Made by a program: the position numbers and the translations under genes
Assembly: GCA_963711125.1 (NCBI GenBank)
Contig: CAVQCY010000002.1
Coordinates: 1,243,852 to 1,307,851 of the forward strand
DNA: 64,000 nucleotides
Direction of reading: 5' to 3'
Source of the DNA: an uncultured Actinomycetota bacterium
GTDB lineage: Bacteria > Actinomycetota > Actinomycetes > Streptomycetales > Streptomycetaceae
The notes under the pieces: generated by a model
What the model saw: the letters and a program-made list of their open reading frames with translations, nothing else
What the model was told of the DNA's origin: nothing
The model's database searches: none
In this document: piece by piece, positions 176 through 59,458 of the stretch
How positions within the stretch are numbered: the first letter of the stretch is position 1
Layout of the letters: each line of letters opens with the position of its first letter

Positions 176-823
176 GTGCCCGCCCCAGCGGGGGCGGACT
201 CCGTCCGTGCCCAGCGGGGCACGGACCAGCAGGCAGGGGAGGCCGAGCGCGACCTCCCCCAGGACCAGCCTGCAGACGTCGTGCGCCTCGCGCCGACGAT
301 CAACGCCGACGCATTTGTGCACCACGGCGTCGCCGCCAACGACATCCCGGCACCTATCGACGACGCCACCGCACCCGGCTCCGAGCGTCGGCGGCGACTG
401 AGCGAAGTCCTGTACCGGCCCCGCTCCGGGACCAAGCGCGACGTGCAGTTGACATGCTCTGCCGAACCGGCGGAACGCGAGTTCATTGACCGCGCTGCAC
501 GCGATGCGAAGCGCTCCCGCTCGGCCTACCTGATGGACGCCGCCCTCACGTTCGCCCACGCCTACCTGCCCGACCAACGGCCCGCAGGCGTGCCGGCGCT
601 GCCGTCACCGCAGGCCACCCAGGACCTGATGGTTCTGTTCGGAAGGCTGATACGCGAGTTCCACCGGATCGGTAACAACCTCAACCAGATCGTCCGCGCA
701 CTCCATACCGGCGACCTGCCCGAGCACGCCGAGCAGATCCTCGACGAACTGCACCAGCTCGGACGCCTGGCCCGACGCGCACTGGAGCAGGTCCTCGCAG
801 GAGGTGGTCGCCGTGGTGCCTGA
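176..823 (+). CDS. MobC-like plasmid mobilization (relaxosome accessory) protein; true start probably downstream of 176
   Basis: C-terminal motif LIREFHRIGNNLNQIVRALHTGD matches the MobC family N-L-N-Q signature. An upstream RHH-like stretch reads AERE-FIDRAARDAKRSRSAYLMDAAL. The ORF overlaps the start of the downstream relaxase. Confidence 0.55.
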   Translation: MPAPAGADSVRAQRGTDQQAGEAERDLPQDQPADVVRLAPTINADAFVHHGVAANDIPAPIDDATAPGSERRRRLSEVLYRPRSGTKRDVQLTCSAEPAEREFIDRAARDAKRSRSAYLMDAALTFAHAYLPDQRPAGVPALPSPQATQDLMVLFGRLIREFHRIGNNLNQIVRALHTGDLPEHAEQILDELHQLGRLARRALEQVLAGGGRRGA

Positions 824-2561
824 CGTCTCCACCGGGGACCGCACCCGCGGCCTGCTCTCCTACCTCTTCGGACCGGGCCGCCGCAACGAGCACACCGACC
901 CGCACATCGTCGCCGCCTTCGCCATGCCCGGCATCACTGACCCCGGTCGCGTCCTCCTCGACGAGCACCAGGCCATGCTGACGGAACTGGCCGAATACCT
1001 CGACCAGCCGGTGCGACTGCGCGAGCAGCGCACCGGGAAGAAGGTTCCGCAGCACGTGTGGCACTGCCCCGTCCGCACCGCCCCCGGCGACCGCTACCTC
1101 ACCGACACCGAATGGGCCGAGGTGGCCCGCCGCATCGTCCACGCAACCGGCATAGCTCCGGCAGGCGACGACGCGGGCTGCCGGTGGATCGCGGTGCGGC
1201 ACGCGGAGGACCACATCCACATCATGGCCACCAGCGTCCGCGAGGACGGCCGCCGCCCTCGCAACAAACGCGACGGGCAGCGTGCCCAGGCCGAGTGCCG
1301 CAAGATCGAGGCCGAACTCGGGTTGCGGCGCCTGAAGTCCGGCGACGCGACCGCGCCGAAGACCCCGACCGGCGCGGAGGTGGCCAAGGCCGAGCGCCAG
1401 GGCCGCCAGCAGACAGCGCGGCAGTGGCTGCGCGAGCACGCCTACGCCGCCGCAGCCGCCTCCACCGACGAAGACGAGTACTTCGCCGTCCTCACCGCGT
1501 ACGGCATCCAGGTCCGGCACCGCATCGGGCCCGAAACCGGCGAGACCACCGACTACAGCCTCGCCGCCCCCGGAGACACCGACGCCAAGGGCGAACCCGT
1601 CTTCTACAGCGGCTCCGCACTGGCCCCCGACCTCTCCCTCAACCGACTCCGCGAACGCTTCATCCCCGCCGACGACCAGTTCGCGACACAACCCCGGAAG
1701 CATCCCGCCAACCGCCGCGAGAGCGGGGACGCCTGGCGGCGGGCCGAGACCGAACTGCGCACCACCTACGCCTTCCTCCTCGACGCGCCGAAGGGAGAGG
1801 ACACGGATGCCCAGGTGCAAGCCCAGGCAGCGGCCTTCGCCGAACTGCTCCACAACACCGCATCGACCGCGCCGCGCCAACTTCGGGCCGAACTGCGTGC
1901 GGCAGCAGTCGAGTTCGACCGGGCGAATCGCTCCGCGATCCGAGCGGAACACCAAAGCGCCAACGCGCTGCGGCAAGCGGGGAAGGAACTGATCCGCGCC
2001 CTGGGCGGCGGGGACGGCGGCGCCGTGGCCGCGCTGCTGTGCACCGCGATCTACACGCTGATCGCCCTGAACCGCTGGCACGAGCAGCGCGGGCATCAGC
2101 AGCAGGCCGCTGCCGCCCAACAATCGCTCATCCACCTCCAAGCCGCCTACCAGCAGACGGCACGTCCCGCGCTGGCCAGGCTCGCCGACCGCACCCCCGG
2201 AGCCGATGAGACCCGGCGCATGGCCACCACCGTCCACGCGGTGCTGCCCGAGCACGCCGGACGGATCCTCACCGACCCAGGCTGGCCCGCCCTGGCAACG
2301 GCCCTTGCCCAGGCCGAGTCCGCCGGCGTCGCGCCCCGGCAGGCACTTGCCGCTGCGGCCGGGCAGCGGGAACTCGACAGCGCCGACCGCCCGGCCGAAG
2401 TCCTCGTCTGGCGCCTCCGCAACGCCACGGCCGACCGGATCATCGAACGCGTCCAGGCCGCACGCGCCCGCAGCGGCCACGCCACGATGACACCCGCGTC
2501 CGCGACACCTTCTGTACCGGTCGTCGCCAGGGCCGCCAACGACCCCACGCGCCGACGCTGA
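804..2561 (+). CDS. Relaxase / mobilization nuclease (MobA/VirD2-like)
   Basis: N-terminus reads GLLSYLFGPGRRNEHTDPH. The histidine triad HAEDHIHIM matches relaxase motif III. The gene sits directly downstream of, and overlaps, the mobC-like gene. Confidence 0.7.
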   Translation: MVAVVPDVSTGDRTRGLLSYLFGPGRRNEHTDPHIVAAFAMPGITDPGRVLLDEHQAMLTELAEYLDQPVRLREQRTGKKVPQHVWHCPVRTAPGDRYLTDTEWAEVARRIVHATGIAPAGDDAGCRWIAVRHAEDHIHIMATSVREDGRRPRNKRDGQRAQAECRKIEAELGLRRLKSGDATAPKTPTGAEVAKAERQGRQQTARQWLREHAYAAAAASTDEDEYFAVLTAYGIQVRHRIGPETGETTDYSLAAPGDTDAKGEPVFYSGSALAPDLSLNRLRERFIPADDQFATQPRKHPANRRESGDAWRRAETELRTTYAFLLDAPKGEDTDAQVQAQAAAFAELLHNTASTAPRQLRAELRAAAVEFDRANRSAIRAEHQSANALRQAGKELIRALGGGDGGAVAALLCTAIYTLIALNRWHEQRGHQQQAAAAQQSLIHLQAAYQQTARPALARLADRTPGADETRRMATTVHAVLPEHAGRILTDPGWPALATALAQAESAGVAPRQALAAAAGQRELDSADRPAEVLVWRLRNATADRIIERVQAARARSGHATMTPASATPSVPVVARAANDPTRRR

Positions 2562-9761: not shown

Positions 9762-10181
9762 ATGGGCGAGACAGGAGTACACCCCGGCATGGCCAGCACC
9801 ACCACCCCCAGCAGCTTCGGATCGGATCCGGCGCCGCGTCCGAAACGGCGCACATTCTCTGCCGAGTACAAACTGCGCCTGGTCGCCGAGTACGACGCCG
9901 CCCCTCCCGGGGAGAAGGGCGCGATCCTGCGCCGGGAGCGGCTGTACCACTCGCACATCATCGAGTGGCGCCAGGCCCGCGAGGCCGGCGCCCTGGATGG
10001 CCTGGCAGACCGGCGGACCTCGGTGGTCCGGCCGAAGAAGGCCGCCGAGCAGGCCGAGCTGGAACGGCTGCGCAAGAAGGTCGCCCGACTGGAGAAGGAC
10101 CTGGCCCGCCGCGACGCGGCCCTGGAAGTCATGGGAAAAGCCAACGCGCTCTTGGAACTGCTCTCCGAGAGCGCGGACTGA
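9762..10181 (+). CDS. IS3-family transposase OrfA (HTH)
   Basis: The sequence RTFSAEYKLRLVAEYDAAPPGEKGAILRRERLYHSHIIEWRQA plus the leucine-zipper-like tail LERLRKKVARLEKDLARRD are typical of IS3 OrfA. The start may instead be the ATG at 9789. Confidence 0.75.
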   Translation: MGETGVHPGMASTTTPSSFGSDPAPRPKRRTFSAEYKLRLVAEYDAAPPGEKGAILRRERLYHSHIIEWRQAREAGALDGLADRRTSVVRPKKAAEQAELERLRKKVARLEKDLARRDAALEVMGKANALLELLSESAD

Positions 10182-11205
10182 AGCATGCGGCCGCGCCGGT
10201 GGTCGATGAGGCTTTCGCCGGTGTCCAGGGGCAGTTGGGGACCACGGCGGCCTGCCGGCTGACCGGGCGTTCGCGTGCCACCCACTACCGCCACCTCAGC
10301 CCGAAGCCGAGGCCCGCACCGTCCCCGAGACCCGCGCCCGCCTCGGCCCTCTCACCGGCCGAGCGGGCCGCGATCCTGGAACTGCTGAACCGGCCGGAGT
10401 ACGCCGACCTGCCCCCGCACAGGTCTGGGCACGTGAGCTGGACGCGGGCACCTACTGGTGCTCGGAGCGGACGATGTACCGGATCCTGTCCGCAGCCGGG
10501 CAGAACGGCGAACGCCGCCGCCAGGCCACCCACCCGCCCAGAACGATCCCCGAACTGGTCGCGAACGGGCCGTCGCAGGTCTTCACCTGGGACATCACCA
10601 AGCTGCCCGGCCCGGCCAAGGGCATCTGGTACCACGCCTACGTGATCATCGACATCTTCAGCCGCTACATCGTCGGCCACACCGTCGAACTGGCCGAAAC
10701 AGCCGAACGGGCCGAGGAGTTGATCCGTGAGGCCATCGAACGCAACGGCATCGTGCCCGAGACCGTCCACGCGGACCGCGGGACCTCCATGACCAGCAAG
10801 AAGGTCTCCCAACTGCTGATCGACCTTGGTGTCACCAGGAGCCATTCCCGCCCCAGGGTGAGCAACGACAACCCCTACAGCGAGAGCCAGTTCCGCGCCA
10901 CGAAGTACGCCGCCGACTACCCCGCACGCTTCGACTCCCTCACGCACGCCCGGGAGTGGATGGACGCCTTCATCACCTACTACAACCACGACCACAGACA
11001 CTCCGGGATCGGCCTGCACACCCCCGCCTCCGTTCACTTCGGCACCGCCGAGGAGGTCCGGGACCAGCGGGCCGTCGCCCTCGCCGGGGCTTACCAACGC
11101 CACCCCGAACGGTTCGCCCGCCGACCGAGACCACCCGAGATACCCGGCCAGGTCTGGATCAACGACCCCGCCAATCGAAGAGAACCCGAACCACAAAGTT
11201 CATAG
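10150..11205 (+). pseudogene. IS3-family transposase OrfB (DDE integrase core), carrying an extra inactivating frameshift near 10415-10430
   Basis: The OrfB N-part is in the -1 frame (LKHAAAPVVDEAFAG...ILELLNRPEYADLPP). It then needs a further 1-nt shift at a CCCCC run to reach the AQVWARELDAGTYWCSERTMYRILSAAGQ... WDITKL...HADRGTSMTSK...SNDNPYSESQF (DDE) region. Confidence 0.65.
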
Positions 11206-12329: not shown

Positions 12330-12923
12330 TCAGTGCGCGCCGGCGAGGACCGGTGCGGACCAGACGTCGATCACGACCTGGTGCCGCCTCGGGCTCACCG
12401 CCGCCGCGTCCTCCGCGTAGTTCTGGTCGACCTGTGCCGCCTCCGCCGCGCTCGGTTTGGCGTTGGTGCACGACGTGCCGGGGCCGTGGCCGGACATCAG
12501 CTCCGAGCAGGGCCCGCTGTAGTCGTCGGGCAGCCCGAAGATGTGCCCGGTCTCGTGCGCCGCGATCCGGGTCATGTCGTAGCCCTCGTCGACGGCTTCC
12601 TGTCCCAGGTCCACCTCGCCCTTGCTGCCGCCCGGGAAGATCGGCCCGAGCGTCGTCTCCGGCCAGCCGCTGGTCGCCACGTAGACGAAGTCGGCCGAGC
12701 TGGGCGAACTGCTCGGCGCCAACTGCACGTTGTGCACCGCCGCGTTCCAGTTCTGCACGGCCTGCGTGACCGCGCCCGCCCACTGTCCCGCTTGACTGGC
12801 GTCGTAGGTCAAGGTGACCACCGACGTGGCCGCCTTCGGCGCGGGGTGCGCCGAAGCCGTACCGGACGCGACGCCCAGCATGGCCGGGATCAGCGCCGCC
12901 ACGACCGCTATTCGCTTGTTCAT
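12330..12923 (-). CDS. snpA: Snapalysin (M7 small neutral Zn-metalloprotease), secreted
   Basis: Signal peptide MNKRIAVVAALIPAMLGVASGTASA. The zinc motif AHETGHIFGLPDDY (HExxHxxGxxD) is present. The mature domain is about 165 aa, typical of Streptomyces SnpA. Confidence 0.8.
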   Translation of the reverse strand: MNKRIAVVAALIPAMLGVASGTASAHPAPKAATSVVTLTYDASQAGQWAGAVTQAVQNWNAAVHNVQLAPSSSPSSADFVYVATSGWPETTLGPIFPGGSKGEVDLGQEAVDEGYDMTRIAAHETGHIFGLPDDYSGPCSELMSGHGPGTSCTNAKPSAAEAAQVDQNYAEDAAAVSPRRHQVVIDVWSAPVLAGAH

Positions 12924-13246
12924 GGGACTCGTTCGCCTCCCTGACATCTGTTGTCTGTGAGCCACAAGGGCACCACGCCGGCGGAGAGAGCCACAAGTAC
13001 GCGATTGTCGAAGGGAGATGGGCGCGACCCCCTTGACCGTGGTCCGTCGCGCCGCGGCCCGGTCGCATCCGGCCGCGTCGCGTCCCGCCGTGTCGGCCGC
13101 CTCCCGCCGCGTCCGGCCGCCTCCCGCCGCGTCCGGCCGCCTCCCGTCGCGTCCGGCCGCGTCACGGCCGTCCGGCCGCGTCACGGAGCACCGCGGCGCC
13201 GACGGCGGGCGCCGCGACAGGGGGCCGGGCGGTTCCGTGCGGCGCC

Positions 13247-14719
13247 GTGTGGCGGATGATGGGAACCGACGGCGGAGGTGGACGGAGGGGTGGTGCGGTG
13301 GTGGACGGCGATTCCATCCAGGCGGAGTCGGACCTGCGGTCCGGGGACCTGCCGGAGTCCGGGCCGGGCGCCCGGCACGAGGAGGGTGTCCCGGGTTCCG
13401 CTCGGCGCCCGTCCGAGGAGGGCGTCCCGGGTTCCGCTCGGGACCAGCCCCGGCCCCGGCCCCGGCGCGGGCGACTGCGCGGGGCCGTGGTCCTCCTCGT
13501 CATCGCGGTGCTGTTCCTCCTGCCCTGGTGGACGCTGTTCGCCTCCGGCGCCGACTGGCCGTTCCCGGTCTTCCTCGCCGGCACGGTCGCCTTCGCCTTC
13601 TGGCTGGTGTCCTTCCCCTTCCTCATGACCGCGGGCCACGGCCGGCGGCGGGACGACCGGGCGGCCCGTGCCGCGGACGGCACCCTCGGGGTGGTCTGGG
13701 TGCTGTTCACCTGGTCGGTGCTGGGCGGCTCGGCCCACCTCGTGCTGATCGGACTCGGCGTCGGCGTCGCCGACCGGGCCAGGGGCGTCGCGGTGGGCGT
13801 CGCCGCGGTCTCCGCCGGGCTGCTGGCGTGGGGGCACCGCGAGGCCATGCGGGTGCCCCGGGTGAAGCGGCTGGACGTCCACGTCCCGCGGCTCGGCGGC
13901 GGTCTGGACGGAACCCGTGTCGTGGTGCTGGCCGACACCCACTTCGGGCCGATCGACCGGGCGGACTGGTCGACGCGGGTCGCGGAGGCCGTCAACGCGC
14001 TCGACGCGCACGTCGTGGTCCACGCGGGCGACATCGCCGACGGCACCCCCGCCCGGCGCCGGGAGCAGTCCGCACCGCTCGGGACGATCCGGTCACGGCT
14101 GGCGAAGGTCTACGTCACGGGGAACCACGAGTACTTCGGGGAGGCCCAGGGCTGGCTGGACCGCATGGCGGAACTGGGCTGGGAACCGCTGCACAATCGC
14201 CACGTCGTGGTGGAGCGCGGCGGCGAGACCCTCGTGCTGGCCGGGGTGGACGACGTGACGGCGGAGTCCTCCGGCCTGGCCGGCCACCGCGCGAACCTGC
14301 TGGGTGCGTTGGCGGGCACCGACCCGGAACGGCCGGTCCTGCTCGTCGCCCACCAGCCCAAGTTCGTCGCACAGGCCGCCGCCGCCGGTGTCGACCTACA
14401 GGTCTCGGGGCACACTCACGGCGGCCAGATCTGGCCGTTCAACTTCCTGGTCCGACTCGACCAGCCGGTGGTGCACGGCCTGAGCCGGCACGGCGAGCGG
14501 ACCCAGCTCTACACCAGCCGGGGCACCGGCTTCTGGGGGCCGCCCTTCCGGGTCTTCGCACCGAGCGAGATCACGCTGCTGACGCTGCGCGCCGGGCGGG
14601 CCGCGCCGGAGCGCACCGCCGATCCCTCCGCGGCGCCCGCGGCGGGTCCGCGCGGCCCCCGCCCGGTCGGTCCGGGCCGGTTCAGGCGGGCGGCCGGCGG
14701 ACCACGCGGACGTCGGTGA
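13247..14719 (+). CDS. Membrane-anchored calcineurin-like metallophosphoesterase; start uncertain
   Basis: Motifs ADTHFG, GDIADG, GNHEY and GHTHGGQ are present. Hydrophobic segments lie N-terminal to the catalytic domain. The N-terminal region contains a 36-bp tandem duplication. Confidence 0.65.
   Translation: MWRMMGTDGGGGRRGGAVVDGDSIQAESDLRSGDLPESGPGARHEEGVPGSARRPSEEGVPGSARDQPRPRPRRGRLRGAVVLLVIAVLFLLPWWTLFASGADWPFPVFLAGTVAFAFWLVSFPFLMTAGHGRRRDDRAARAADGTLGVVWVLFTWSVLGGSAHLVLIGLGVGVADRARGVAVGVAAVSAGLLAWGHREAMRVPRVKRLDVHVPRLGGGLDGTRVVVLADTHFGPIDRADWSTRVAEAVNALDAHVVVHAGDIADGTPARRREQSAPLGTIRSRLAKVYVTGNHEYFGEAQGWLDRMAELGWEPLHNRHVVVERGGETLVLAGVDDVTAESSGLAGHRANLLGALAGTDPERPVLLVAHQPKFVAQAAAAGVDLQVSGHTHGGQIWPFNFLVRLDQPVVHGLSRHGERTQLYTSRGTGFWGPPFRVFAPSEITLLTLRAGRAAPERTADPSAAPAAGPRGPRPVGPGRFRRAAGGPRGRR
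13379..13450. repeat. 36-bp tandem duplication inside the phosphoesterase N-terminal coding region (EEGVPGSARxPS x2)
   Basis: GAGGAGGGTGTCCCGGGTTCCGCTCGG is repeated, with T to C and divergent 3' ends. Confidence 0.6.
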
Positions 14720-15743
14720 CCTCCATCAGGCCGTCGAGGTCGACCACCGTCCTGGTCTGGCCGGGGTCGACCACGAGACCGTCGCGGCGTACGAGGTCCA
14801 GCAGCCGTTCGGCCAGCGGGAGCACCATGTGGCGGCCCCAGCAGCGTTCGTTGGCGTGGCCGAACGGCAGGTAGCCGGGGTGGGTGTCGCCGTCCAGGTC
14901 GTTCCACCGCTCCGGGCGGAACGCGTCCGGCTCGTCCCACAGCGCGGGGTCGCGGTGGCTCAGCAGCGGCAGCAGCAGCACGTCGTCGCCCGGGCCGATC
15001 CGTTCGTCCACCCGCGCGAACTCCGGCGAGGCGACCCGCAGGATGTTCCACGACACCGGCAGCAGGCGCAGCGCCTCCAGGATGACGTTGCGGTGGGGGA
15101 CGTCGTCGTCGAACGGCGCGCCGAGCCAGAGCGCGTTGGTGACGAGGGCGGCCACCGTGAAGCAGATCGGCGCGGCGACCCGGCGGTAGAGGTACATCGC
15201 GTAGCGCCGCTCGGCGTAGTCCGGGGCGTTCAGGACCAGGCCGGCCAGCTTCGACATCGGCAGGTCGCGGCCGGGCCGGCGCAGGAACGCGGCGCCCGAG
15301 GTGACGGCGGACCAGGTGACCTTCGGCGTCAACTCCAGCCTGCGGTCGACCAGGACACGGAACCGGAGGCTCTCACGGCCGAACACCAGGTCGCGCAGGT
15401 ACGTGTGCGGCACGTGCGGCCAGCGGCCGGTCAGGTCGGCCCGTTCGTCCGCCAGCGGTCGTTGCAGCGCGCGCCGCACGTCGGCGCCCACCGCCTGCAT
15501 GAAAGTGGAGGCGTCGGCCCGGCTCACCTCACGACCCCACACCGGTTTGAACGTGGGCCTTTCCTCGGCGTTCGCCGGCCGGCTGCGGAGCACCCCGTCC
15601 ATCAGGTCGGCGCCGGCAATTCCTACGGTGTCGGATTCCAGCCGGAAAAGCTGTTGGCCGCGATATCGGGTGAGGAGTTCCTCAATTCTCGGTGCGAACT
15701 CCACGACGCGGGTGGGCTGACCGGCGGTACGGTGCTTCGGCAT
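14682..15743 (-). CDS. Cytochrome P450 (short, 353 aa)
   Basis: K-helix ExxR (EALRLLP), PERF-like FRPERW and a heme-binding loop PFGHANERCWG with the conserved Cys are present. It is convergent with, and overlaps, the phosphoesterase 3' end by 38 bp. Confidence 0.7.
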   Translation of the reverse strand: MPKHRTAGQPTRVVEFAPRIEELLTRYRGQQLFRLESDTVGIAGADLMDGVLRSRPANAEERPTFKPVWGREVSRADASTFMQAVGADVRRALQRPLADERADLTGRWPHVPHTYLRDLVFGRESLRFRVLVDRRLELTPKVTWSAVTSGAAFLRRPGRDLPMSKLAGLVLNAPDYAERRYAMYLYRRVAAPICFTVAALVTNALWLGAPFDDDVPHRNVILEALRLLPVSWNILRVASPEFARVDERIGPGDDVLLLPLLSHRDPALWDEPDAFRPERWNDLDGDTHPGYLPFGHANERCWGRHMVLPLAERLLDLVRRDGLVVDPGQTRTVVDLDGLMEVTDVRVVRRPPA

Positions 15744-15768
15744 CGGCGGACCTTCGTCGGCGGGACGG

Positions 15769-15801
15769 CCCGCGCCGCCCGGTTCACCCGGCCGGCGCGG
15801 G
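15769..15801 (-). promoter_or_regulatory. GC-rich stem-loop between the small peptide ORF and the P450
   Basis: CCCGCGCCGCCCGG-ttcac-CCGGCCGGCGCGGG forms a 14-bp stem with one mismatch. Confidence 0.3.
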
Positions 15802-15822
15802 ACTTGACGGGGAACGGCCCGA

Positions 15823-15900
15823 TCAGATCCAGCCGTACCAGGCGTACGCCTTCAGGCTCTTCTGGGACCGGAGCTTCCTGGCGAGGCGAACGAGTTTCAT
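15823..15900 (-). CDS. Candidate RiPP precursor peptide (25 aa; alternative upstream ATG at 15912 gives 29 aa)
   Basis: ATG with SD GGAGGA 5 nt upstream. The peptide is MKLVRLARKLRSQKSLKAYAWYGWI: a basic leader and an aromatic C-terminal core. It lies 79 bp upstream of, and co-oriented with, the P450. Confidence 0.45.
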   Translation of the reverse strand: MKLVRLARKLRSQKSLKAYAWYGWI

Positions 15901-16302
15901 GAATTCCTCCATGCCTGCTGGGTGCCGACGAATTCAGTGAACCGGTGGACGGATCGGTCCCGAGCCGCACGGAAGCGGAACGAAATCCATTCCAGCCACC
16001 CGGAAAGTGAATACCGGCTTGTTGAAGCTGTCAAGTGATCGATCTCACGTGGTGAATCGTCCACGGCGGGTTTTGAATTCTTCGCGATCGTCATTCGGCA
16101 GATATCGCGCAGAGTGCCCATGGAGTGTGATGCGGAGGCTCGCCGAGCAGCGGGCCCACGGCCGCCCGTCCGGCCCTGGTCCCGCGGGTTCCGGCCGCCG
16201 CCCGTCCGGCCCGGCGATGCCCGCCGCCGCCCGTCCGGCCCGGCTGCCCGTCCGACGCCCCGCCGCCCCAGCCGGCCGCGGCCGGCGGGCTCGCCCGGGC
16301 GG

Positions 16303-16572
16303 TCAGCCGGCGGTGTTCCCGCCGTGCGGCGCTCCGGACGCCTTGCCGATCTCCGCCCAGACCACCGCGCCCGTGCCGACCCGGTCGTGGCCGAACCGGT
16401 CGGCGCGGGCCAGTGCGGCGATGATGGCCGTCAGCACGTCCACGGTGACCTCGGTGGGCACGTCGGCCTCGACGCGGACGGCGTCCGCGGTCTCGACGGT
16501 GCGTGCCCGGCCGCCGGTCGCGACGGTCAGTCGTCCGGCGATCTCGCGGGCGCGGGAGGCAGGTGAACGCAC
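16303..16572 (-). CDS. Small hypothetical protein (89 aa)
   Basis: GTG start with GAGGA 7 nt upstream. Codon usage is consistent with a real gene. No family was recognised. Confidence 0.4.
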   Translation of the reverse strand: MRSPASRAREIAGRLTVATGGRARTVETADAVRVEADVPTEVTVDVLTAIIAALARADRFGHDRVGTGAVVWAEIGKASGAPHGGNTAG

Positions 16573-16656
16573 GGGTGTCCTCAGGTGAGCCGGAGCCGAT
16601 GATCACGCATCGTAAGACTACTTAAGCAGGTTGGACCTGATGCAGTAACTTTGTCA

Positions 16657-16689
16657 ACGCAGTCAGAGCTTCGACGCAGTCAGAGCTTC
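16657..16689. promoter_or_regulatory. Tandem 16-bp direct repeat (ACGCAGTCAGAGCTTC x2) in the gntR promoter region
   Basis: Perfect copies at 16657-16672 and 16674-16689 lie in a lower-GC intergenic region about 25 bp upstream of the GntR ATG. Confidence 0.35.
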
Positions 16690-16712
16690 AACCGGCAGGT
16701 GGGAGACCGCGG

Positions 16713-17477
16713 ATGGAAGGCGAGGCCCCTTACCTGCGGGTCGCCGAGGACCTGCGGGCGCGCATCGGGCGCGGGGAATGGGCCGAGGGCGACCGCATGC
16801 CCTCCCGCGCGATGCTCGCGAGGGAGTACGGGGTCGGGCGCAACGTGACCCAGCGTGCGGTGGACCGGCTCATCGTCGAGGGCCTGGTCGAGGGCCGGGC
16901 CGGCTCCGGTACGTTCATCAGCCGCCCTCGCGAGCGCCGGCGGATGGTCCGCTCCCGGCCCGGCGCGCCGCGCGGCGGCAGTCCGTTCCACGCCGGCCCC
17001 GGCCTGGACGACCTGGGCGGCGAGCCGCACTGGGAGCACCACACCCAGGCGCGGGTGCCGGCACCGACCGCCATCGCCGAGCGGCTGGCGATCGCCGAGG
17101 GCGACCCGTGTGTGCACACCCGTTACGAGTTCATGGTCGACCGGCGCACGGTGCAGCTGTCCAGCAGCTGGGAGCCGATGGCCGTCACCCACGAGACGCC
17201 CGTGCTGCTGCCCGAGTTGGGACCGCTGGCCGGCAAGGGCGTCATCGAGCGGATGCTGAGCATCGGGGTGCGGGTGGTGTCCGCGCTGGAGATCCCGCGG
17301 CCGGCCCGGGCCACCGCCGCCGAGGCGGCCATGCTCGGCATCCTCCCCGGCGACCTGGTGCTGCACATCCAGCGCACCTACGTCGCGAGCGACGGCCGCC
17401 CGGTCGAGACGGCGGACATCACGGTGCCGGACGTGCGCTGGGAGATCGCCTACGAGGTCCCCACCCGGCACGACTGA
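16713..17477 (+). CDS. GntR-family (HutC subfamily, UTRA effector domain) transcriptional regulator
   Basis: The N-terminal wHTH reads PSRAMLAREYGVGRNVTQRAVDRLIVEGLV. A UTRA-like C-terminal domain follows. The RBS is GGTGGGAG. Confidence 0.8.
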   Translation: MEGEAPYLRVAEDLRARIGRGEWAEGDRMPSRAMLAREYGVGRNVTQRAVDRLIVEGLVEGRAGSGTFISRPRERRRMVRSRPGAPRGGSPFHAGPGLDDLGGEPHWEHHTQARVPAPTAIAERLAIAEGDPCVHTRYEFMVDRRTVQLSSSWEPMAVTHETPVLLPELGPLAGKGVIERMLSIGVRVVSALEIPRPARATAAEAAMLGILPGDLVLHIQRTYVASDGRPVETADITVPDVRWEIAYEVPTRHD

Positions 17478-17804
17478 CCGCCCCCGTACCCGGGGCCGGT
17501 ACGGGTTCTGGTGCGGCTGGGCCCCGGACCGCGGTGCGTGCCGGGCCCGCGGCGGCCGTCCGACCCGGACGGCGCCGGTCCGGCAGCCGGAGTGCGCGGC
17601 GGTCGTCCGCGGCCGGAGCGCGCGGTCGGGGACTGGGGGTCGGGGGCCGGGATCCGGTGTGACCTGGCTCATGGGTGATTTGTCCGCATCGGAGTGGGAA
17701 GGCTGGCATGTGAGGCACGCCGGAGGAGCGCGGCGGGGTCGGGGGGCGGGACGGCGCTCCCGAGCGGCGGAGCGGGACGAAGGGGGTCTCCGAGGAACGC
17801 GACC

Positions 17805-24883: not shown

Positions 24884-26854
24884 TTACGGGGTCTCCGATA
24901 CGGACGTGAGGACGTTCGGTGCGGCGGGGCCCGGGGCGCCGGGCGCCGGCGCCGTGGCCGTGGCGAAGTAGTGCGCTCCGGTCTCGTGGTTGTCGAGGTG
25001 GAGGTAGAAGCCGATCCGGGACCGGAACTCGTACGTCGTCGGGTTCGGCTCGGGAGGCGTCACCACGCCCGAGGCGAGCCGCTCGTAGGCCGCGAGGACG
25101 TCGAACGGGAACCGCACCGGTTCCCGGCTCACGTAGGCGTCGGCGTCCTCGTCCGTGCGCCAGCCGTCGGTCAGGCCCGCCCCCGGCGGCTGGTAGACCG
25201 GGCGGGAGAGCCGCTCGAAGCGGTACAGGTGCGGTCCGCACTCCCTCCAGGCCGACGGGAAGCGGGAGACGACCTGCTCGTTCCACCAGCGCTCGACCTC
25301 GGCGTCGAGTGCCGGGTCGGAATAGAGGATGCGGTGCCCGGCCGCGACGGCCGGCGACTCGGCGAGTACCGGGAACGCCTCGCGGAACGCCACCACGGAC
25401 GGGTGGTCGCAGGCGTCGATCCACTCCAGCAGCGATCGGACCACCTGCGACTGGGTCATCCCGGCGAGCAGCCGGGCGGGGTGCCACAGCCGTTTGAAGT
25501 ACTGGTTCTCGCCCAGGATGCGGGCGAGGAACATGAAGCGCTGCATCGCGAAGTTCTCGGCGAGGGTGGCGCTGCGGCTGGCGAGCACGTACTCGAAGTC
25601 GTCCGACTCTCCGCGCACGGTGACGAAGCCGTGGAGTTCCCGCTGCTCGCTGTAGGCGGTGTTGGGCAGGAGCAGCAGCGGGTAGACCGCGATGCGGGGC
25701 ACCTTCTCGGCGATCCTGTCGTAGCCGTCGAGGAACGACTCCACGGTCTCCCCGGGGGCGCCCCAGATCAGCTCGACGAAGGATTCCATACCCTCGGCGG
25801 CCAGCCATTCGGCGAGGTCCTGCCACTGGTTGAGCTTCATGTTGCGGCGCCGCATGTCGGTGAGCGCCTCGTCGGAGAGGGTCTGTAGGGCGAGGGTGAA
25901 GGAACTCTTGAAGCCGTGCTTCTTCAGAGTGCGCACGATGCGGTGGAAGCGTTCGGACTTGTTCTTGGCCCAGTTGGCCTCCAGCGAGGTGGGGTACCCG
26001 TACTTCTCACGGGTCCTCAGCAGGTCCTCGGTGAACTCCTCGTCGGCTTCGAGCATCCCGAAGTTCGCGTCGCACAGGAAGACGGTGGGGACCTGGTGGT
26101 ACCCGAACAGGTCCAGTTCGGCGGCGAGCCGGTCCCGGGAGAACGAACGCACCCGCTGGCCGGTCGCCCCGCCCCAATAGCAGAACGAACAGCGGTACGG
26201 ACAGCCGCGGTTGGTCTCCATCAGCGCGAACTCGTACGGGAAGCGGCCCTTCCGGTCGAGCAGGGGTATCGCACCGGTGAGGAACGGGGAGGGGATGACG
26301 TCGAGGTCGTCGATCCTGGGCCGGTCGGTCGTGGTGGTGAACTCGCCGCCGCCGGTGCGGTACGACAGGCCGGGCACGGCGGCGAGGCCGGGGGCGCGGC
26401 GGTCGGACAGGACGGCCGCGACCAGTTCGCGGAACGTCAGCTCACCCTCGCCGTTGACCACGATGTCGACGGCCGGACACTCCCGGAACACCTTCTGGGC
26501 CTGGTGGCTCACGTGGTTCCCCCCGAAGACCGTGAAGCCGTCGGGTTTCAACTGCTTGTGGACGTCCGCGAGAAGGGAGAAGTTCCGGTAGTTCCACCCC
26601 ACGACGGAGAACGCGAGGAGGTCCGGTACCTCCTTGTTGAAGATGACCCGTGCCATCTCGTTCACGGACCATCCACCGCGCATGTTGTGGATTCGTACCT
26701 CGACTTCGGGGCCCAGGTCGGGATCGGTGTCGAGTAACGCCTTCAGGTAGCCGGCGGCCAGCGGCATGGAATCAACGGGAAGGTCCCAAGCGCTCTGCTG
26801 GACCAAGCCGATCGTGAGCATGTCCGTCCACCTCCGTGACGAAGTCCGTGACAC
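24884..26854 (-). CDS. B12-binding radical SAM enzyme (class B rSAM, methyltransferase-like) with long C-terminal extension
   Basis: An N-terminal cobalamin-binding domain precedes a radical SAM core with CPYRCSFCYW (CxxxCxxC). Total length is 656 aa. Confidence 0.8.
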   Translation of the reverse strand: MSRTSSRRWTDMLTIGLVQQSAWDLPVDSMPLAAGYLKALLDTDPDLGPEVEVRIHNMRGGWSVNEMARVIFNKEVPDLLAFSVVGWNYRNFSLLADVHKQLKPDGFTVFGGNHVSHQAQKVFRECPAVDIVVNGEGELTFRELVAAVLSDRRAPGLAAVPGLSYRTGGGEFTTTTDRPRIDDLDVIPSPFLTGAIPLLDRKGRFPYEFALMETNRGCPYRCSFCYWGGATGQRVRSFSRDRLAAELDLFGYHQVPTVFLCDANFGMLEADEEFTEDLLRTREKYGYPTSLEANWAKNKSERFHRIVRTLKKHGFKSSFTLALQTLSDEALTDMRRRNMKLNQWQDLAEWLAAEGMESFVELIWGAPGETVESFLDGYDRIAEKVPRIAVYPLLLLPNTAYSEQRELHGFVTVRGESDDFEYVLASRSATLAENFAMQRFMFLARILGENQYFKRLWHPARLLAGMTQSQVVRSLLEWIDACDHPSVVAFREAFPVLAESPAVAAGHRILYSDPALDAEVERWWNEQVVSRFPSAWRECGPHLYRFERLSRPVYQPPGAGLTDGWRTDEDADAYVSREPVRFPFDVLAAYERLASGVVTPPEPNPTTYEFRSRIGFYLHLDNHETGAHYFATATAPAPGAPGPAAPNVLTSVSETP

Positions 26855-44450: not shown

Positions 44451-47120
44451 TCACCGCGGGGAACCCCCTTCGTCGAGTCCGTCGAGTTCGACCATGAGCT
44501 CGGTGACGTACCGGTGCCGGCCGTCGCGCAGCCAGATCTGTTCGGGGCCGGGCAGCATTTCGCTGAACACCACCGGCGAGGTGGTCTTGCGGACCGCGGT
44601 GTCCAGCAGTCGCACGCACGCGTAGGAATCGAAATCCACGTACTGCGGTTTGTGCTCACCGCCCAGTGCGGCGAAGACGTGGCGGGGTAGGCCGGCCGCG
44701 CGGTGCCATTCCCGCCAGGCCAGGAACCACTCCTGCTCGGACTGACCGGTCACCACCGGCGGCAGCCGGTCCGGTGGGAAACGCCAGGACTTCCGCTGCA
44801 GGATCGTCCTGCCCAGCCGGATCCGCGGCAGGACGCCTTCCTCGCGGTCGGCCAGGCCGGTGCCCTCCCACAGGTCGAGTTGCGCCATGGTGGTGCAGGA
44901 GAAGTTCAGCAGGACCTGCTGGATCTCCGGGAGCGCCATGGGCAGCAGGAAGCCCAAATAGACCGGGATCACCTCGGTGCCGAGCCGGCGCGAACGCAGC
45001 AGGAGCCGATCGGTGGTGATGTCGTGCTCCACGACCAGGTCCTCGACCGGAATCTGCTCTTGCGGCGGCCGATGGCTGGTCTCGCCGGGACACACCACCT
45101 CGTACGGGGTCACCACCGGGTGCAGGTTGAGGTTGGTCGTGTTGTAGCCGCCCTTGAGCTCGGCGAAGACAGCCCCCGGAGGCACCGCGTCTTCCAGCGA
45201 GCGGCGCAGCGACCCGGTGAGGTCGTCGTCGAGGCAGTGCGCGAAGCGGGAGAACAGCAGCGTGAGACCGGAGTAGATCCGGTTGACGACGACCAGTGGG
45301 TCGTTCGTGCCGTCGTCGGCCACCTGAAGGAAGAAGGACAACGACCGTGGCCCAGTCGGGTGCGGCAGCAGGTTCTCGATCGTGCGGAGGAAGTCCTCGT
45401 CGAGTTCGATGTCGCCGCCGCCCGCCTCGTGACGCCGCACGACCTCCTCGGCGACCGCAGCCCGCGCCCGGTCGATGCCGGTGATCTCGGGTTGCTTGAA
45501 CCAGTTGTCGTAGCCGCGCGGGGTGCCGCCGTCGAAGCGCTGGTGACGCATCAACCGCTGGTTGTAGTTGTCGTAGATGTCTTGGCCGAACTCGTGGGCG
45601 AAGGAGAGGAAGTCCGAGCACCGTCCGCCCTCGCCGTACCGCACCCGGAAGTAGCCCTTGGTCACGAGCCGGCGTACCAGGTTGGTGTCGAAGGCCGGCA
45701 GGACGCGTGCCACTTGCCGCAGTCCGAGGGCCGTCCGGTTGCTCCAGGCTTCGGCGTCCCCGGCCACGGCCACGCCCGGCAGAGTGGTGTCCTCGTAGAC
45801 CAGTGTCCGGAGCACGGGAACGTCTTCGTGCCCCAGCTGGCGGTGTGCGCTGGCCACCGACTTGCGTACCCGGGCGAGCAGTTCACGTCGTTCCGGTAGG
45901 CCGGCGTCGGCGAAGCGCGCCACGTCCGAGCCCACCCGGGCCACGTGCTCTGCGAGGTCTTGGGCCCACTCGGCGTCCAGGTTCCGCAGCCCGGCGCAGT
46001 AGGTGGAGACCGGATCGGGGTCATGGATGTCCATGTCCAGCTCCGGCACGACGAGCAGGCCCAGCCGCAGCAGTTGGGCCAGGTACTGCTCCACCCCCTC
46101 CTGCGGCCGGTCCCGGCCCGCCGCGCACACCCGTCGCACCGCCTCGGCGAACCGCAGTGTGGTCCCGCCGGCGAAGAGCGCGAGCACGTCGGCCAGGACG
46201 TCGCCGGTGGGCAGGAAGAACAGGCTCTCGTGCACGGCGTCCAGGGTGACCGCTGCGTCTGCGTCGCCGTCCGCGCCGCGCAGCTTGCGCAGGTACCGCA
46301 CCCGGTCGCGATCGACCTCGAGCCCGCTGGTGGCGCGTACCGGCAGGTCTCGGCGTACCCGCGGGGTTGCGGCCAGCAGGTCGGACAGGCGGGCCAGCAC
46401 CGCGACGTTGAGCCGGGTGCTGCTGCTCTTGTGCCACCCGGATACCGAGGCCGCCAGCGGACGACCGCCGACATCAGTGAACGTGCCCGCACACACCGAC
46501 GTCAGCGTGCTGAACGGGCTTGTCTTGCACGCCGTACGGAACAGGTATTCCAGCAGGGAGCGCTCCACCCGGCGTTCCCGTTTGCTGAGCGGTTCGTCGC
46601 CGCGCGACAGGTAGCCGTCCAGGTGCTCGTCGAGGGACGGTGAGGAGAGCTGCACGCCCAGCCGCAGGTCGCTCTCCCGAGCGATCCGGCGCAGCTCCCG
46701 CCGCATGGCCGCCACCTCGCTGGCCAGCACCTCGGCACCGGCCCCCAGCAGCGCCTCGTGCCGGGCCCGTTCGGCGTCCCAGTCCCGTAGCGCGGCGAGC
46801 GAGTCCGCCGGCAGCAGGGTCTCGGCCGCCGCCAGCGAGCGGGCAGGCCGGCCGTTGAAGACGTCGCGGCGCAGGTTGATCAGGGTACGCCGGGCAGCCG
46901 GGTAGTCGAGGCTCGCCGCCACCTGTTCCTGCAGGACGTCGGCGAGCTCGGCCCCGCTCTCGCGCAGCTTGTCCCGAGCGTCGAGCACCTCGTCGGTCCA
47001 GGCGGCCGCCGCCGGGGAGGCGAGAGCGGTGGCTGCCTCGAACGGCAGACCGCCGACGCGCAGCATGAACCTCGGCACCAGGTGCCATCGCGTCACGGGG
47101 CGCAGCGTGCTGGATGTCAC
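44451..47120 (-). CDS. Lantibiotic dehydratase N-terminal (LanB glutamylation) domain protein
   Basis: 889 aa. The start WHLVPRFMLRVGGLPF and overall length match split LanB N-terminal proteins as seen in thiopeptide and goadsporin clusters. Confidence 0.8.
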   Translation of the reverse strand: MTSSTLRPVTRWHLVPRFMLRVGGLPFEAATALASPAAAAWTDEVLDARDKLRESGAELADVLQEQVAASLDYPAARRTLINLRRDVFNGRPARSLAAAETLLPADSLAALRDWDAERARHEALLGAGAEVLASEVAAMRRELRRIARESDLRLGVQLSSPSLDEHLDGYLSRGDEPLSKRERRVERSLLEYLFRTACKTSPFSTLTSVCAGTFTDVGGRPLAASVSGWHKSSSTRLNVAVLARLSDLLAATPRVRRDLPVRATSGLEVDRDRVRYLRKLRGADGDADAAVTLDAVHESLFFLPTGDVLADVLALFAGGTTLRFAEAVRRVCAAGRDRPQEGVEQYLAQLLRLGLLVVPELDMDIHDPDPVSTYCAGLRNLDAEWAQDLAEHVARVGSDVARFADAGLPERRELLARVRKSVASAHRQLGHEDVPVLRTLVYEDTTLPGVAVAGDAEAWSNRTALGLRQVARVLPAFDTNLVRRLVTKGYFRVRYGEGGRCSDFLSFAHEFGQDIYDNYNQRLMRHQRFDGGTPRGYDNWFKQPEITGIDRARAAVAEEVVRRHEAGGGDIELDEDFLRTIENLLPHPTGPRSLSFFLQVADDGTNDPLVVVNRIYSGLTLLFSRFAHCLDDDLTGSLRRSLEDAVPPGAVFAELKGGYNTTNLNLHPVVTPYEVVCPGETSHRPPQEQIPVEDLVVEHDITTDRLLLRSRRLGTEVIPVYLGFLLPMALPEIQQVLLNFSCTTMAQLDLWEGTGLADREEGVLPRIRLGRTILQRKSWRFPPDRLPPVVTGQSEQEWFLAWREWHRAAGLPRHVFAALGGEHKPQYVDFDSYACVRLLDTAVRKTTSPVVFSEMLPGPEQIWLRDGRHRYVTELMVELDGLDEGGSPR

Positions 47121-47132
47121 GGATCAGCCCTC

Positions 47133-48743
47133 TCAGACCAGCCGGTAGTCGTAGTCCGCGCGGTCCGCGCGTTCGTGGCCCAGCAGCACGAACAGGAAGG
47201 TGCGCTCATCGCCGTCCGCCAGGCCCACCGCCTCGTCGATGGCGATGTTGTCGAAGCCGAGCACCACGCCGCAGCCGACGCCCAGGGCCGCGGCAGTGGT
47301 GTAGGCCGTCTGCGCCAGCCCGCCCACCTCGGCGTTGAGCACCCGGTAGCCGCGGGCTCCGTACGTCTCCAACGTGCTGCGCCACAATCCGGAGATGGCC
47401 AGCACCGCGCCGACCTGCTCCAGGTTGTAGTTGGTGAGGTAGTAGCTGCGTTGCAGCTTCTCCGCGAGCGGCATCTCGCGCACCACCCTGAGCCGGTGGC
47501 CCGCGGCGTCGTACCGGTAGGTACCGGACGGCAACCCGTCGACCCGGTTCGCCAGCACGTACAGCCCGGTCAACCCGACGTCTTCGGGCACCACGTCAGC
47601 GGTGTAGCGCTGGCCGGCCACCGTACCGGCCAGGACGGTCCCCAGTTCGTCCAGACCCAGGAGCCTGGTGCGCACGAACGAACCGAAACTCGTCCGCCGG
47701 GACCGGAGCACCTGCCCGACCCCCCGGCCGAGCCGGCCGTTCAACAGCGGGGGCAACGGCACCTGGACGTCCGACGGCCGGGGCACCGGAACGAGTGCCC
47801 GGGCTGACTCGGGGTCCGGGCGCTCCCGGCGGTCGCCGAGCACCGCCCGGTGCACCTGCTCGACCTGCTCGAAGACCCTTGTGCGCGCCGACCGTTCGAA
47901 GCAGGACCGGTCGACCGTCCAGTCTTGTCCGGCCGCCGCGACCGCGTGGTCCGCCGGTGGGGCACACGGCAGTGGGACGACCGCCAGCACGCTCTCCTCA
48001 TGCGTGCGGAACCCCAACAGCCGGTTCAGCCGCTCGTCGTCGAACCACAGCACCCGCGACAGCCGTCGACCCGTCGCCCGGGCGACCACTTCCCAACCGG
48101 CCAGCAGGGCACCGACGTCCTGGGTCACCACGTGGTAGCAGAAACTGTTGTACTTGAAGGAGTTCTTCCAGAAGCGCACCGCGACCAGTAGGTAACCGTC
48201 GGCCGTACCGTGTGCGGGCCCGGGCCCGCACGCCGCACGGACCTCGTCGGTCGGATCCCCGGCGACCAGCCGTTCGAAGGCGTGGTGCGCGGTCGAGTAG
48301 TGGTAGAGGCCGGGCGTCAACGGGCTGCCGGGACCAGCCGCCCAGTACACCTCCAACGGGTACATTCCTCCACCCGAGGCGGCGCCGCGCCCCCACAGCG
48401 CCTCCGGGTAGAGCACCCGCACGTGGCTGTCCTGGTTCCAGCTCACCCGCAGCCGTCGGTCCAGCACCCCGTAGCACAGCCGCAGCATCCCGGCGAGGGA
48501 GTCCAAGGTCCACGGCGGGCCCGAACCCTCCGGGGGATCTCCGAACAACGCGTCGCCCGTGCCGGCCAGCGGCAGGTCGGCACCGGGCGGCAGCGGGAAG
48601 CGCCGCACCCCCAGGTAGGTCTTGTGCCGGGAGGGCTGGTCCGCCCAGTCCGGGCTGAATCCGATCGGCTCCATCGGCTCCCGGCCACGCCGGAAGACCG
48701 ACTCCACGTAGCGGGTCACGACGCTCGTCGGCTCCTGCGACAC
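47133..48743 (-). CDS. SagB-type (McbC-like, nitroreductase-fold) azoline dehydrogenase
   Basis: Two nitroreductase-like halves are present with FMN-binding residues. GTG at 48743 is preceded by GGAGGAG (an alternative ATG is at 48764). Confidence 0.7.
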   Translation of the reverse strand: MSQEPTSVVTRYVESVFRRGREPMEPIGFSPDWADQPSRHKTYLGVRRFPLPPGADLPLAGTGDALFGDPPEGSGPPWTLDSLAGMLRLCYGVLDRRLRVSWNQDSHVRVLYPEALWGRGAASGGGMYPLEVYWAAGPGSPLTPGLYHYSTAHHAFERLVAGDPTDEVRAACGPGPAHGTADGYLLVAVRFWKNSFKYNSFCYHVVTQDVGALLAGWEVVARATGRRLSRVLWFDDERLNRLLGFRTHEESVLAVVPLPCAPPADHAVAAAGQDWTVDRSCFERSARTRVFEQVEQVHRAVLGDRRERPDPESARALVPVPRPSDVQVPLPPLLNGRLGRGVGQVLRSRRTSFGSFVRTRLLGLDELGTVLAGTVAGQRYTADVVPEDVGLTGLYVLANRVDGLPSGTYRYDAAGHRLRVVREMPLAEKLQRSYYLTNYNLEQVGAVLAISGLWRSTLETYGARGYRVLNAEVGGLAQTAYTTAAALGVGCGVVLGFDNIAIDEAVGLADGDERTFLFVLLGHERADRADYDYRLV

Positions 48744-48811
48744 GGTCTCTCCTCCTGCGGCCATTGAGCCTGGGCGGTCCGTCCGGTGACGGCCACGGGC
48801 GATCGGATCCA

Positions 48812-50761: not shown

Positions 50762-50925
50762 CGGTCCACCCAGTCGCTCGCTACGGGTTCGGTCAGGCAC
50801 GGGTCGTTCCGTGATGGCGGACTGCCCGCATGGTCCGGCCCGGCCGGGTCACGCGGGCAGCCGCACGTTTCACACTGGACGGTCGGGCAGGTCACGCGGT
50901 CCGCCGCCCCCGACGCCGGGAGGCG

Positions 50926-56950: not shown

Positions 56951-59458
<2,508 letters not shown>

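Follow-up and report, generated by a model that had tools for sequence, protein, structure and literature searches.

The question raised by this locus is whether a very short open reading frame (ORF) lying just upstream of a cytochrome P450 gene encodes the precursor of a cross-linked peptide, and if so, of which class. The pair lies in a 64,000-nt stretch of DNA (the window) from an uncultured Actinomycetota bacterium of the Streptomycetaceae (contig CAVQCY010000002.1), and all features of the cluster are on the minus strand (Table 1; positions are those of the whole window). An earlier reading of the bare sequence, here called the original prediction, had proposed a peptide made on ribosomes and modified after translation (RiPP), of tryptorubin or atropopeptide type. 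Our analysis leaves little doubt that the locus is a minimal two-gene cluster of this family, which has been known since 2022 and has a curated NCBI hidden Markov model (HMM), and the locus is an ordinary, moderately divergent new member of it.

Family membership of the precursor and the P450

The 25-residue product scores 48.2 bits (cut-off 33; E = 9.8e-13) with the NCBIfam model NF038372 ("tryptorubin family RiPP precursor"), in a full-length alignment that places residues 1-25 on model positions 1-26. Tryptorubin A, whose core AWYIWY was given correctly in the original prediction, arises from a precursor of the 23-27-aa type with one P450, and its family received the name atropopeptides (PMC9826248). 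More than 650 such clusters have been catalogued, and they are defined by a P450 of the class, a KSLK motif in the leader and Trp at core position 2 (PMC11450843). In the window, the P450 shares 70% identity over 349 aa with SvaB (WP_030892401.1; P0046) and is placed within the TrpB/AmyB/SvaB clade, the leader carries KSLK, and Trp is the second residue of the core (A-W-Y-G-W-I). The length of 25 aa falls within the published range of 23-27 (PMC9826248), and the precursor gene is co-oriented with the P450 gene and separated from its ATG by exactly 79 nt, as originally stated. With Trp at core positions 2 and 5, the peptide also belongs to the bitryptide subfamily (xWxxWx, as defined in PMC11450843).

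The P450 itself shows the P450 fold, the Cys heme-ligand loop and the ExxR motif (E223/R226) of the superfamily. E223, R226 and Cys301 are invariant in a 42-sequence alignment, and every invariant column of this alignment is kept in the window. The Pfam PF00067 match (53.6 bits) covers the C-terminal third only, and fold searches returned generic P450s only. More than 500 homologues at 60-79% identity were found in Streptomyces, Kitasatospora, Amycolatopsis, Nocardia and relatives, the nearest among the sequences found being at most 79% identical. The enzyme had been described as unusually short, which is true in comparison with typical P450s but not within its own family: nearly all of the 120 homologues listed have about 330-370 aa, so that the short length is typical of the family and no sign of truncation. 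By sequence, the closest solved structure is GpeC (PDB 9ULW; E = 1.7e-12, residues 209-318), and the top NCBIfam model is that of a RiPP P450, with a score far below its cut-off. GpeC, a biaryl macrocyclase acting on a WxxY core, is likewise a short (376 aa) RiPP-crosslinking P450 (bioRxiv 10.1101/2024.10.06.616194), but just its C-terminal heme-binding third aligns with the enzyme of the window, and it is leader-independent, serves another precursor family and falls outside the atropopeptide P450 clade. KwwB, the Kitasatospora cyptide synthase, was rejected as a relative, being a member of another P450 cluster (C04) and having a WxW motif as its target.

The closest characterised system is the varsorubin cluster svaA/svaB of Streptomyces varsoviensis DSM 40346, which has the same two-gene layout (PMC11450843). 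In the GenBank supplement of that study, WP_030892401.1 is the P450 of the sva cluster and adjoins a "tryptorubin family RiPP precursor", MEEFMKLVHLVNKFRSEKSLKAYSWYQWL, which is identical at 21 of 29 residues to the 29-aa form of the ORF in the window, MEEFMKLVRLARKLRSQKSLKAYAWYGWI. The spacer between the two genes is 76 nt in sva compared to 79 nt here, a hairpin is found in both, and the same TTGAC...TTCAC motif lies upstream (locus L026 of our set). The cores differ, being SWYQWL in sva and AWYGWI in the window (Ala1, Gly4 and Ile6 are the window's residues). The tryptorubin A (trpA/trpB) and amyxirubin (amyA/amyB) clusters (PMC9826248) share with the window a 23-27-aa KSLK precursor, core positions 1-3 and 5 (AWYxWx), and a single P450 as the sole tailoring enzyme with no cluster-encoded protease. 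They differ at core positions 4 and 6, which are Gly/Ile in the window but Ile/Tyr or Ile/Trp in tryptorubin and amyxirubin, and the P450s that accompany AWYIWY precursors share about 62-65% identity with that of the window and form a separate clade. The same predicted core as in the window is found in the AWYGWI clusters of AtropoFinder and in NouA of S. noursei (PMC11450843 and PMC12352619 supplements), and the S. noursei P450s are 75-77% identical to ours; the AtropoFinder AWYGWI entries are predictions only, and the NouA data come from the non-cognate enzyme ScaB.

For comparison across genomes, 80 genomic loci were fetched by P450 homology; precursor counts refer to 79 of these loci plus the window. 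In a neighbour-joining tree of 81 P450s labelled by core, the window falls in an AWYGW[I/V/L] clade, whose precursors nearly all have this core and in which the SWYQWL (sva-type) locus L026 is nested within the window's own sub-clade, while the tryptorubin type, AWY[I/H/L]W[Y/F], forms a separate clade. Among the nearest relatives AWYGW[I/V/L] is by far the most frequent core type (48 of the 80 sequences), AWYGWI being the commonest single core (42/80), and AWYGWI appears 79 times in the AtropoFinder precursor alignment. Given this catalogue, the description of the family in 2022 and its curated HMM, the novelty of the locus had been overrated. It adds one fairly divergent (at most 79% identical) P450/precursor pair to the more than 650 clusters on record and is of modest practical use. 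What remains of interest is the product of the AWYGWI clade, together with the conserved regulatory elements. The case also illustrates that RiPP precursors below an ORF size threshold are recognisable from raw sequence.

Table 1. Features of the two-gene cluster, with positions in the 64,000-nt window
Feature	Position	Strand	Basis
Bipartite promoter-like motif TTGACAGCTTCAACAAGCCGGTATTCAC (TTGACA, 17 nt, TTCAC), 134 nt before the ATG of the precursor	16007-16034	-	cross-locus comparison
Longer ORF, 29 aa (MEEF...), MEEFMKLVRLARKLRSQKSLKAYAWYGWI, then stop	15823-15912	-	in-frame ATG at 15912
Shine-Dalgarno GGAGGA of the precursor, then ATTC, then ATG	15910-15905	-	sequence
Precursor (A) gene, 25 aa, MKLVRLARKLRSQKSLKAYAWYGWI	15823-15900	-	ORF, NCBIfam match, conserved start
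Second in-frame ATG, start of the 25-aa form	15900-15898	-	
Leader, residues 1-19 of the precursor MKLVRLARKLRSQKSLKAY-AWYGWI (then stop)	15844-15900	-	
KSLK motif, residues 14-17 of the 25-mer	15850-15861	-	
Core AWYGWI, directly before the stop	15826-15843	-	
Precursor stop codon	15825-15823	-	
Hairpin CCCGCGCCG-G-CCGG GUGAA CCGG-G-CGGCGCGGG	15769-15801	-	fold and comparison
Weak Shine-Dalgarno-like GAAGG of the P450 gene, 7 nt ahead of its ATG	15751-15755	-	sequence
Atropopeptide-class cytochrome P450 (B gene), 353 aa	14682-15743	-	Pfam PF00067, homologues
Heme loop FGHANERCWG, F294-G303	14835-14864	-	
Cys301 codon, heme ligand	14841-14843	-	

Start site, conservation and selection

The precursor can be read from either of two in-frame ATG codons. 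The Shine-Dalgarno (SD) sequence of the 25-aa form had been reported as GGAGGA-5nt-ATG; the SD itself stands, and the gap is off by one at most (4 nt from GGAGGA, 5 nt from GGAGG). When the 29-aa version is searched, the NF038372 alignment starts only with residue 5, a point in favour of the 25-aa form. The 29-aa start is the less likely one, as the SD overlaps its ATG and no SD lies upstream of it, and as the MEEF ATG is present in only a subset of the loci while the HMM begins at the second Met. RefSeq, however, annotates svaA in the longer form. No second precursor was found in the window.

A short co-oriented ORF with the C-terminus [KR]SLK-x-Y-xWxxWx directly before the stop, ending 42-178 nt upstream of the P450 gene, is present in 79 of the 80 loci, and the remaining locus (L045) offers only 60 nt of upstream DNA for inspection. 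Loss of the ORF beside orthologous P450s, which would have spoken against the original prediction, was thus not seen. All 80 precursor sequences have ATG or GTG at the MK(L/F)V start. Among 42 distinct precursor genes of the same length class, the ratio of nonsynonymous to synonymous polymorphism (pN/pS) is 0.38 overall, 0.15 in KSLKxY and 0.22 in the core. Mean identity is 77% within the gene and 34% in the 39-nt flanks, where GGAGG is the sole conserved element upstream of the start. With pN/pS well below 1 and flanks that cannot be aligned, the codon patterns identify the precursor ORF as a protein-coding gene under purifying selection.

These data bear directly on the idea that the ORF arose by chance beside an unrelated, e.g. 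catabolic, P450, or that the pair belongs to another class of P450-modified RiPPs (the biarylitides or cittilins, for instance). DNA of 72% GC is rich in short ORFs, and the incomplete Pfam coverage of the P450 and the generic results of the fold searches could be read in the same way. But the curated HMM match (E = 1e-12), the retention of the ORF in nearly all loci, the low pN/pS and the identity to SvaB refute this explanation, to which we assign a negligible probability, and the nearest relatives of the P450 by solved structure and by NCBIfam model are RiPP enzymes and not catabolic ones. Neither of the other classes fits the ORF. Biarylitides need a 5-aa precursor of the MxYxH type and a P450 of the BytO/P450Blt type, compared to a precursor of 25 aa with a leader and a core lacking His in the window; cittilin cores are of the type YxYY (YIYY, with variants YHYY and YSYY), a motif that is absent here, and go with the P450 CitB and an O-methyltransferase, whereas a Pfam scan of nine neighbours of the pair revealed no methyltransferase. 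Atropopeptide P450s have also been reported to group apart from those of biarylitides and cittilins (PMC9826248).

Fourteen proteins encoded in the 7-8 kb or so around the pair were compared against the 80 loci. Conservation next to the P450 was seen for none of them; two have a match in one locus each (the metallophosphoesterase in L028, and weakly, at 27% identity, ORF 7704-9137 in L004). Only precursor and P450 travel together, which agrees with the published two-gene architecture (PMC9826248). Cluster membership was on this basis rejected for an M7 snapalysin-like peptidase (12330-13184, minus strand), the metallophosphoesterase, a GntR regulator, a SpoIIE-type phosphatase and an 89-aa ORF (16303-16572). 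An IS3-type transposase pair and an ArsB-like transporter, which were also compared, are not conserved with the P450 either.

The intergenic hairpin and the upstream motif

The original prediction had placed a 14-bp stem-loop between the two genes. A stem-loop is present but its size was approximate, since the hairpin has 13 pairs (9 bp and 4 bp) separated by one G.G mismatch, and a GUGAA loop. The idea was borne out by comparison across loci, though not by the fold of the window alone. When 79 distinct spacers (78 loci plus the window) were folded and scored against dinucleotide shuffles, the mean z was -3.35, with 64 of the 79 below -2, compared to -0.87 for stretches of equal length upstream of the precursor. 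The stems typically have 13-19 bp and start about 20 nt past the stop codon, and their sequence varies between clades. In an alignment of 28 spacers, compensatory changes occur in 7 of the 8 consensus pairs, 86% of the cells are paired compared to 30-48% when the partners are slid, and none of 500 shuffles reaches the observed covariation. The hairpin is thus a structure conserved across atropopeptide clusters with compensatory changes, although it is missing in four loci of S. rimosus type, whose spacers have 42-43 nt. An Rfam search of 13500-17500 at E up to 1 gave only a sub-threshold chance match to ASdes, so the hairpin is not a known RNA family, and neither of the two main atropopeptide papers mentions a hairpin or terminator.

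The role of the hairpin is likely attenuation or stabilisation of mRNA, such that the precursor would be favoured over the P450. Addition of a ribosome-binding site before svaB raised the varsorubin yield 100-fold (PMC11450843), which is consistent with P450 expression being limiting natively and with the suggested role of the hairpin. In the aligned block of 28 spacers, most relatives have GGAG at the SD site of the P450, compared to GAAGG in the window.

Upstream of the precursor, a bipartite motif, TTGAC-N17-19-T.CA[CT] (nearly always ending in TTCAC), is present 100-171 nt before the start in 46 of the 80 sequences, against a background of 0.002 per 300 nt in the same loci. It is found in Streptomyces and Kitasatospora loci, in both the AWYGWI and the tryptorubin-type clades, and is absent from the Amycolatopsis and Nocardia loci of the set. 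In the window it lies in a dip of GC content (56.9% in 15913-16100, compared to 72.4% for the window). The motif emerged only through comparison between loci; a generic scan for sigma-70 promoters and terminators over 14400-16400 found no promoter, and one terminator-like site at chance level on the other strand. The motif is a putative promoter. A further conserved sequence, TTCGAAAC, was observed about 35 nt upstream of it.

These elements also enter into the question of whether the pair could be a silent or decaying remnant, unexpressed or non-functional in this organism. The P450 SD is weaker than the GGAG of most relatives, there is a mismatch in the hairpin, a transposase pair of IS3 type is found at a distance of 3.5 kb, and according to the literature native producers often yield no detectable product. 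Against this, the P450 is full length and keeps all invariant columns of the 42-sequence alignment, including the heme Cys and ExxR, the precursor retains its strong SD, KSLK and the core, the upstream promoter-like motif is undamaged, and there are no frameshifts or premature stops. We therefore consider decay quite improbable.

Predicted product and genomic surroundings

By analogy with the family, the 25-aa precursor would be translated from its strong SD and docked through leader and KSLK on its cognate 353-aa P450, which, with redox partners encoded elsewhere, would couple the side chains of Trp2, Tyr3 and Trp5 oxidatively. The expected bonds are a Trp-Trp C-C, a Trp-Tyr C-N and a pyrroloindoline C-N bond, with a net change of -4 Da as in tryptorubin, amyxirubin and varsorubin B1; a monocyclic product of -2 Da may also be formed. 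The same three-bond, -4H pattern has been reported for tryptorubin, amyxirubin, kitasatide, the AzaA/YokA products and varsorubin B1 (PMC9826248, PMC11450843, PMC11659900). Host proteases encoded outside the cluster would then cut after ...KAY to release AWYGWI, which an aminopeptidase may trim to WYGWI, the N-terminal Ala being often lost in the family, while the hairpin and the weak P450 SD would hold precursor expression above that of the enzyme. The predicted [M+H]+ values are 791.3511 (-4H) and 793.3668 (-2H) for AWYGWI, 720.3140 (-4H) and 722.3297 (-2H) for WYGWI, and 609.2456 (-2H) for WYGW. AWYGWI and WYQWL have the same elemental composition (Ala + Gly = Gln, Ile = Leu), so AWYGWI-4H is isomeric with varsorubin B1 (WYQWL-4H) and mass alone cannot tell them apart, which is a trap for dereplication based on mass spectrometry only.

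Several points weigh against this scheme. A full-text search, which did not reach subscription-only papers, found no published structure of a native AWYGWI product in main texts, and the sole datum for this type is the -2 Da tetrapeptide formed from NouA (WYGW, S. noursei) with the non-cognate ScaB (PMC12352619 supplement). Gly4 and the absence of Tyr6 could alter the cross-link pattern. No ferredoxin, reductase or cluster-encoded protease lies nearby, which is, however, typical of the family. The hairpin of the window, which has a mismatch, is when folded alone (z = -1.1) no more stable than shuffled GC-rich sequence, and no U-tract follows it, so that a role as terminator is uncertain.

Some of these points would also fit a main product of the same family that is monocyclic, i.e., of "bitryptide" type with a single Trp2-Trp5 cross-link and -2 Da, like varsorubin B2a, scabrirubin or the cihunamides. 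From one precursor, the nearest of the characterised enzymes, SvaB, forms both bicyclic -4 Da and monocyclic -2 Da products (PMC11450843), the product of NouA and ScaB is Trp-Trp-linked (PMC12352619), and the flexible Gly4 replaces the bulky residue of all characterised caged members. But Trp2, Tyr3 and Trp5, which carry all tryptorubin cross-links, are conserved, P450s of the WYxWY type with I, F, H, L or V at position 4 all give the tryptorubin pattern (PMC11659900), and ScaB is not the cognate enzyme of NouA. A mainly monocyclic product is thus the less likely outcome, the -4 Da peptide with three bonds being the expected one.

More speculatively, P450s of the Gly4 clade (AWYGW[I/V/L]) may install a cross-link topology other than the cage of tryptorubin and varsorubin, and atropopeptide clusters may share an as yet undescribed regulation, in which a Streptomycetaceae TTGAC-N17-TTCAC promoter is combined with a covarying hairpin that fixes the stoichiometry of precursor and enzyme; we regard this combination as rather unlikely. 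If it were true, production could be linked through this joint control to a common developmental signal, as is suggested by the finding that the trp cluster accelerates the formation of aerial mycelium (PMC9826248). Hairpin and promoter motif are in any case small leads on the regulation of these clusters, and may explain low native yields, cf. the 100-fold effect seen for varsorubin. Expression of any member of the AWYGWI sub-clade would fill a gap in the structure-sequence map of the atropopeptides, which attract interest as rigid macrocycles of defined shape and as a source of P450s that cyclise peptides promiscuously.

As regards the surroundings, the longest ORF of the convergent metallophosphoesterase (13247-14719, plus strand) shares 38 nt (14682-14719) with the 3' end of the P450 gene, and the M7 peptidase lies just beyond it. 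A protein with a MobA/VirD2-like relaxase domain (804-2561, plus strand) and the IS3-type transposase pair (HTH_Tnp_1 and rve; 9762-11205, plus strand), at distances of 3.5-14 kb from the cluster, suggest a mobile or recombination-prone region. Farther away on the minus strand, a B12-binding radical S-adenosylmethionine enzyme of 656 aa is encoded at 24884-26854, and the region 44451-50800 resembles a second RiPP cluster, of thiopeptide or linear azol(in)e-containing peptide type, with a Lant_dehydr_N gene (44451-47120), a gene for a nitroreductase/SagB-like protein (47133-49019) and, adjacent to it, a large ORF (48812-50800). Also on the minus strand, an 816-aa protein (56951-59401) contains two Terpene_syn_C_2 stretches (E = 1e-108), a two-domain arrangement typical of geosmin synthase.

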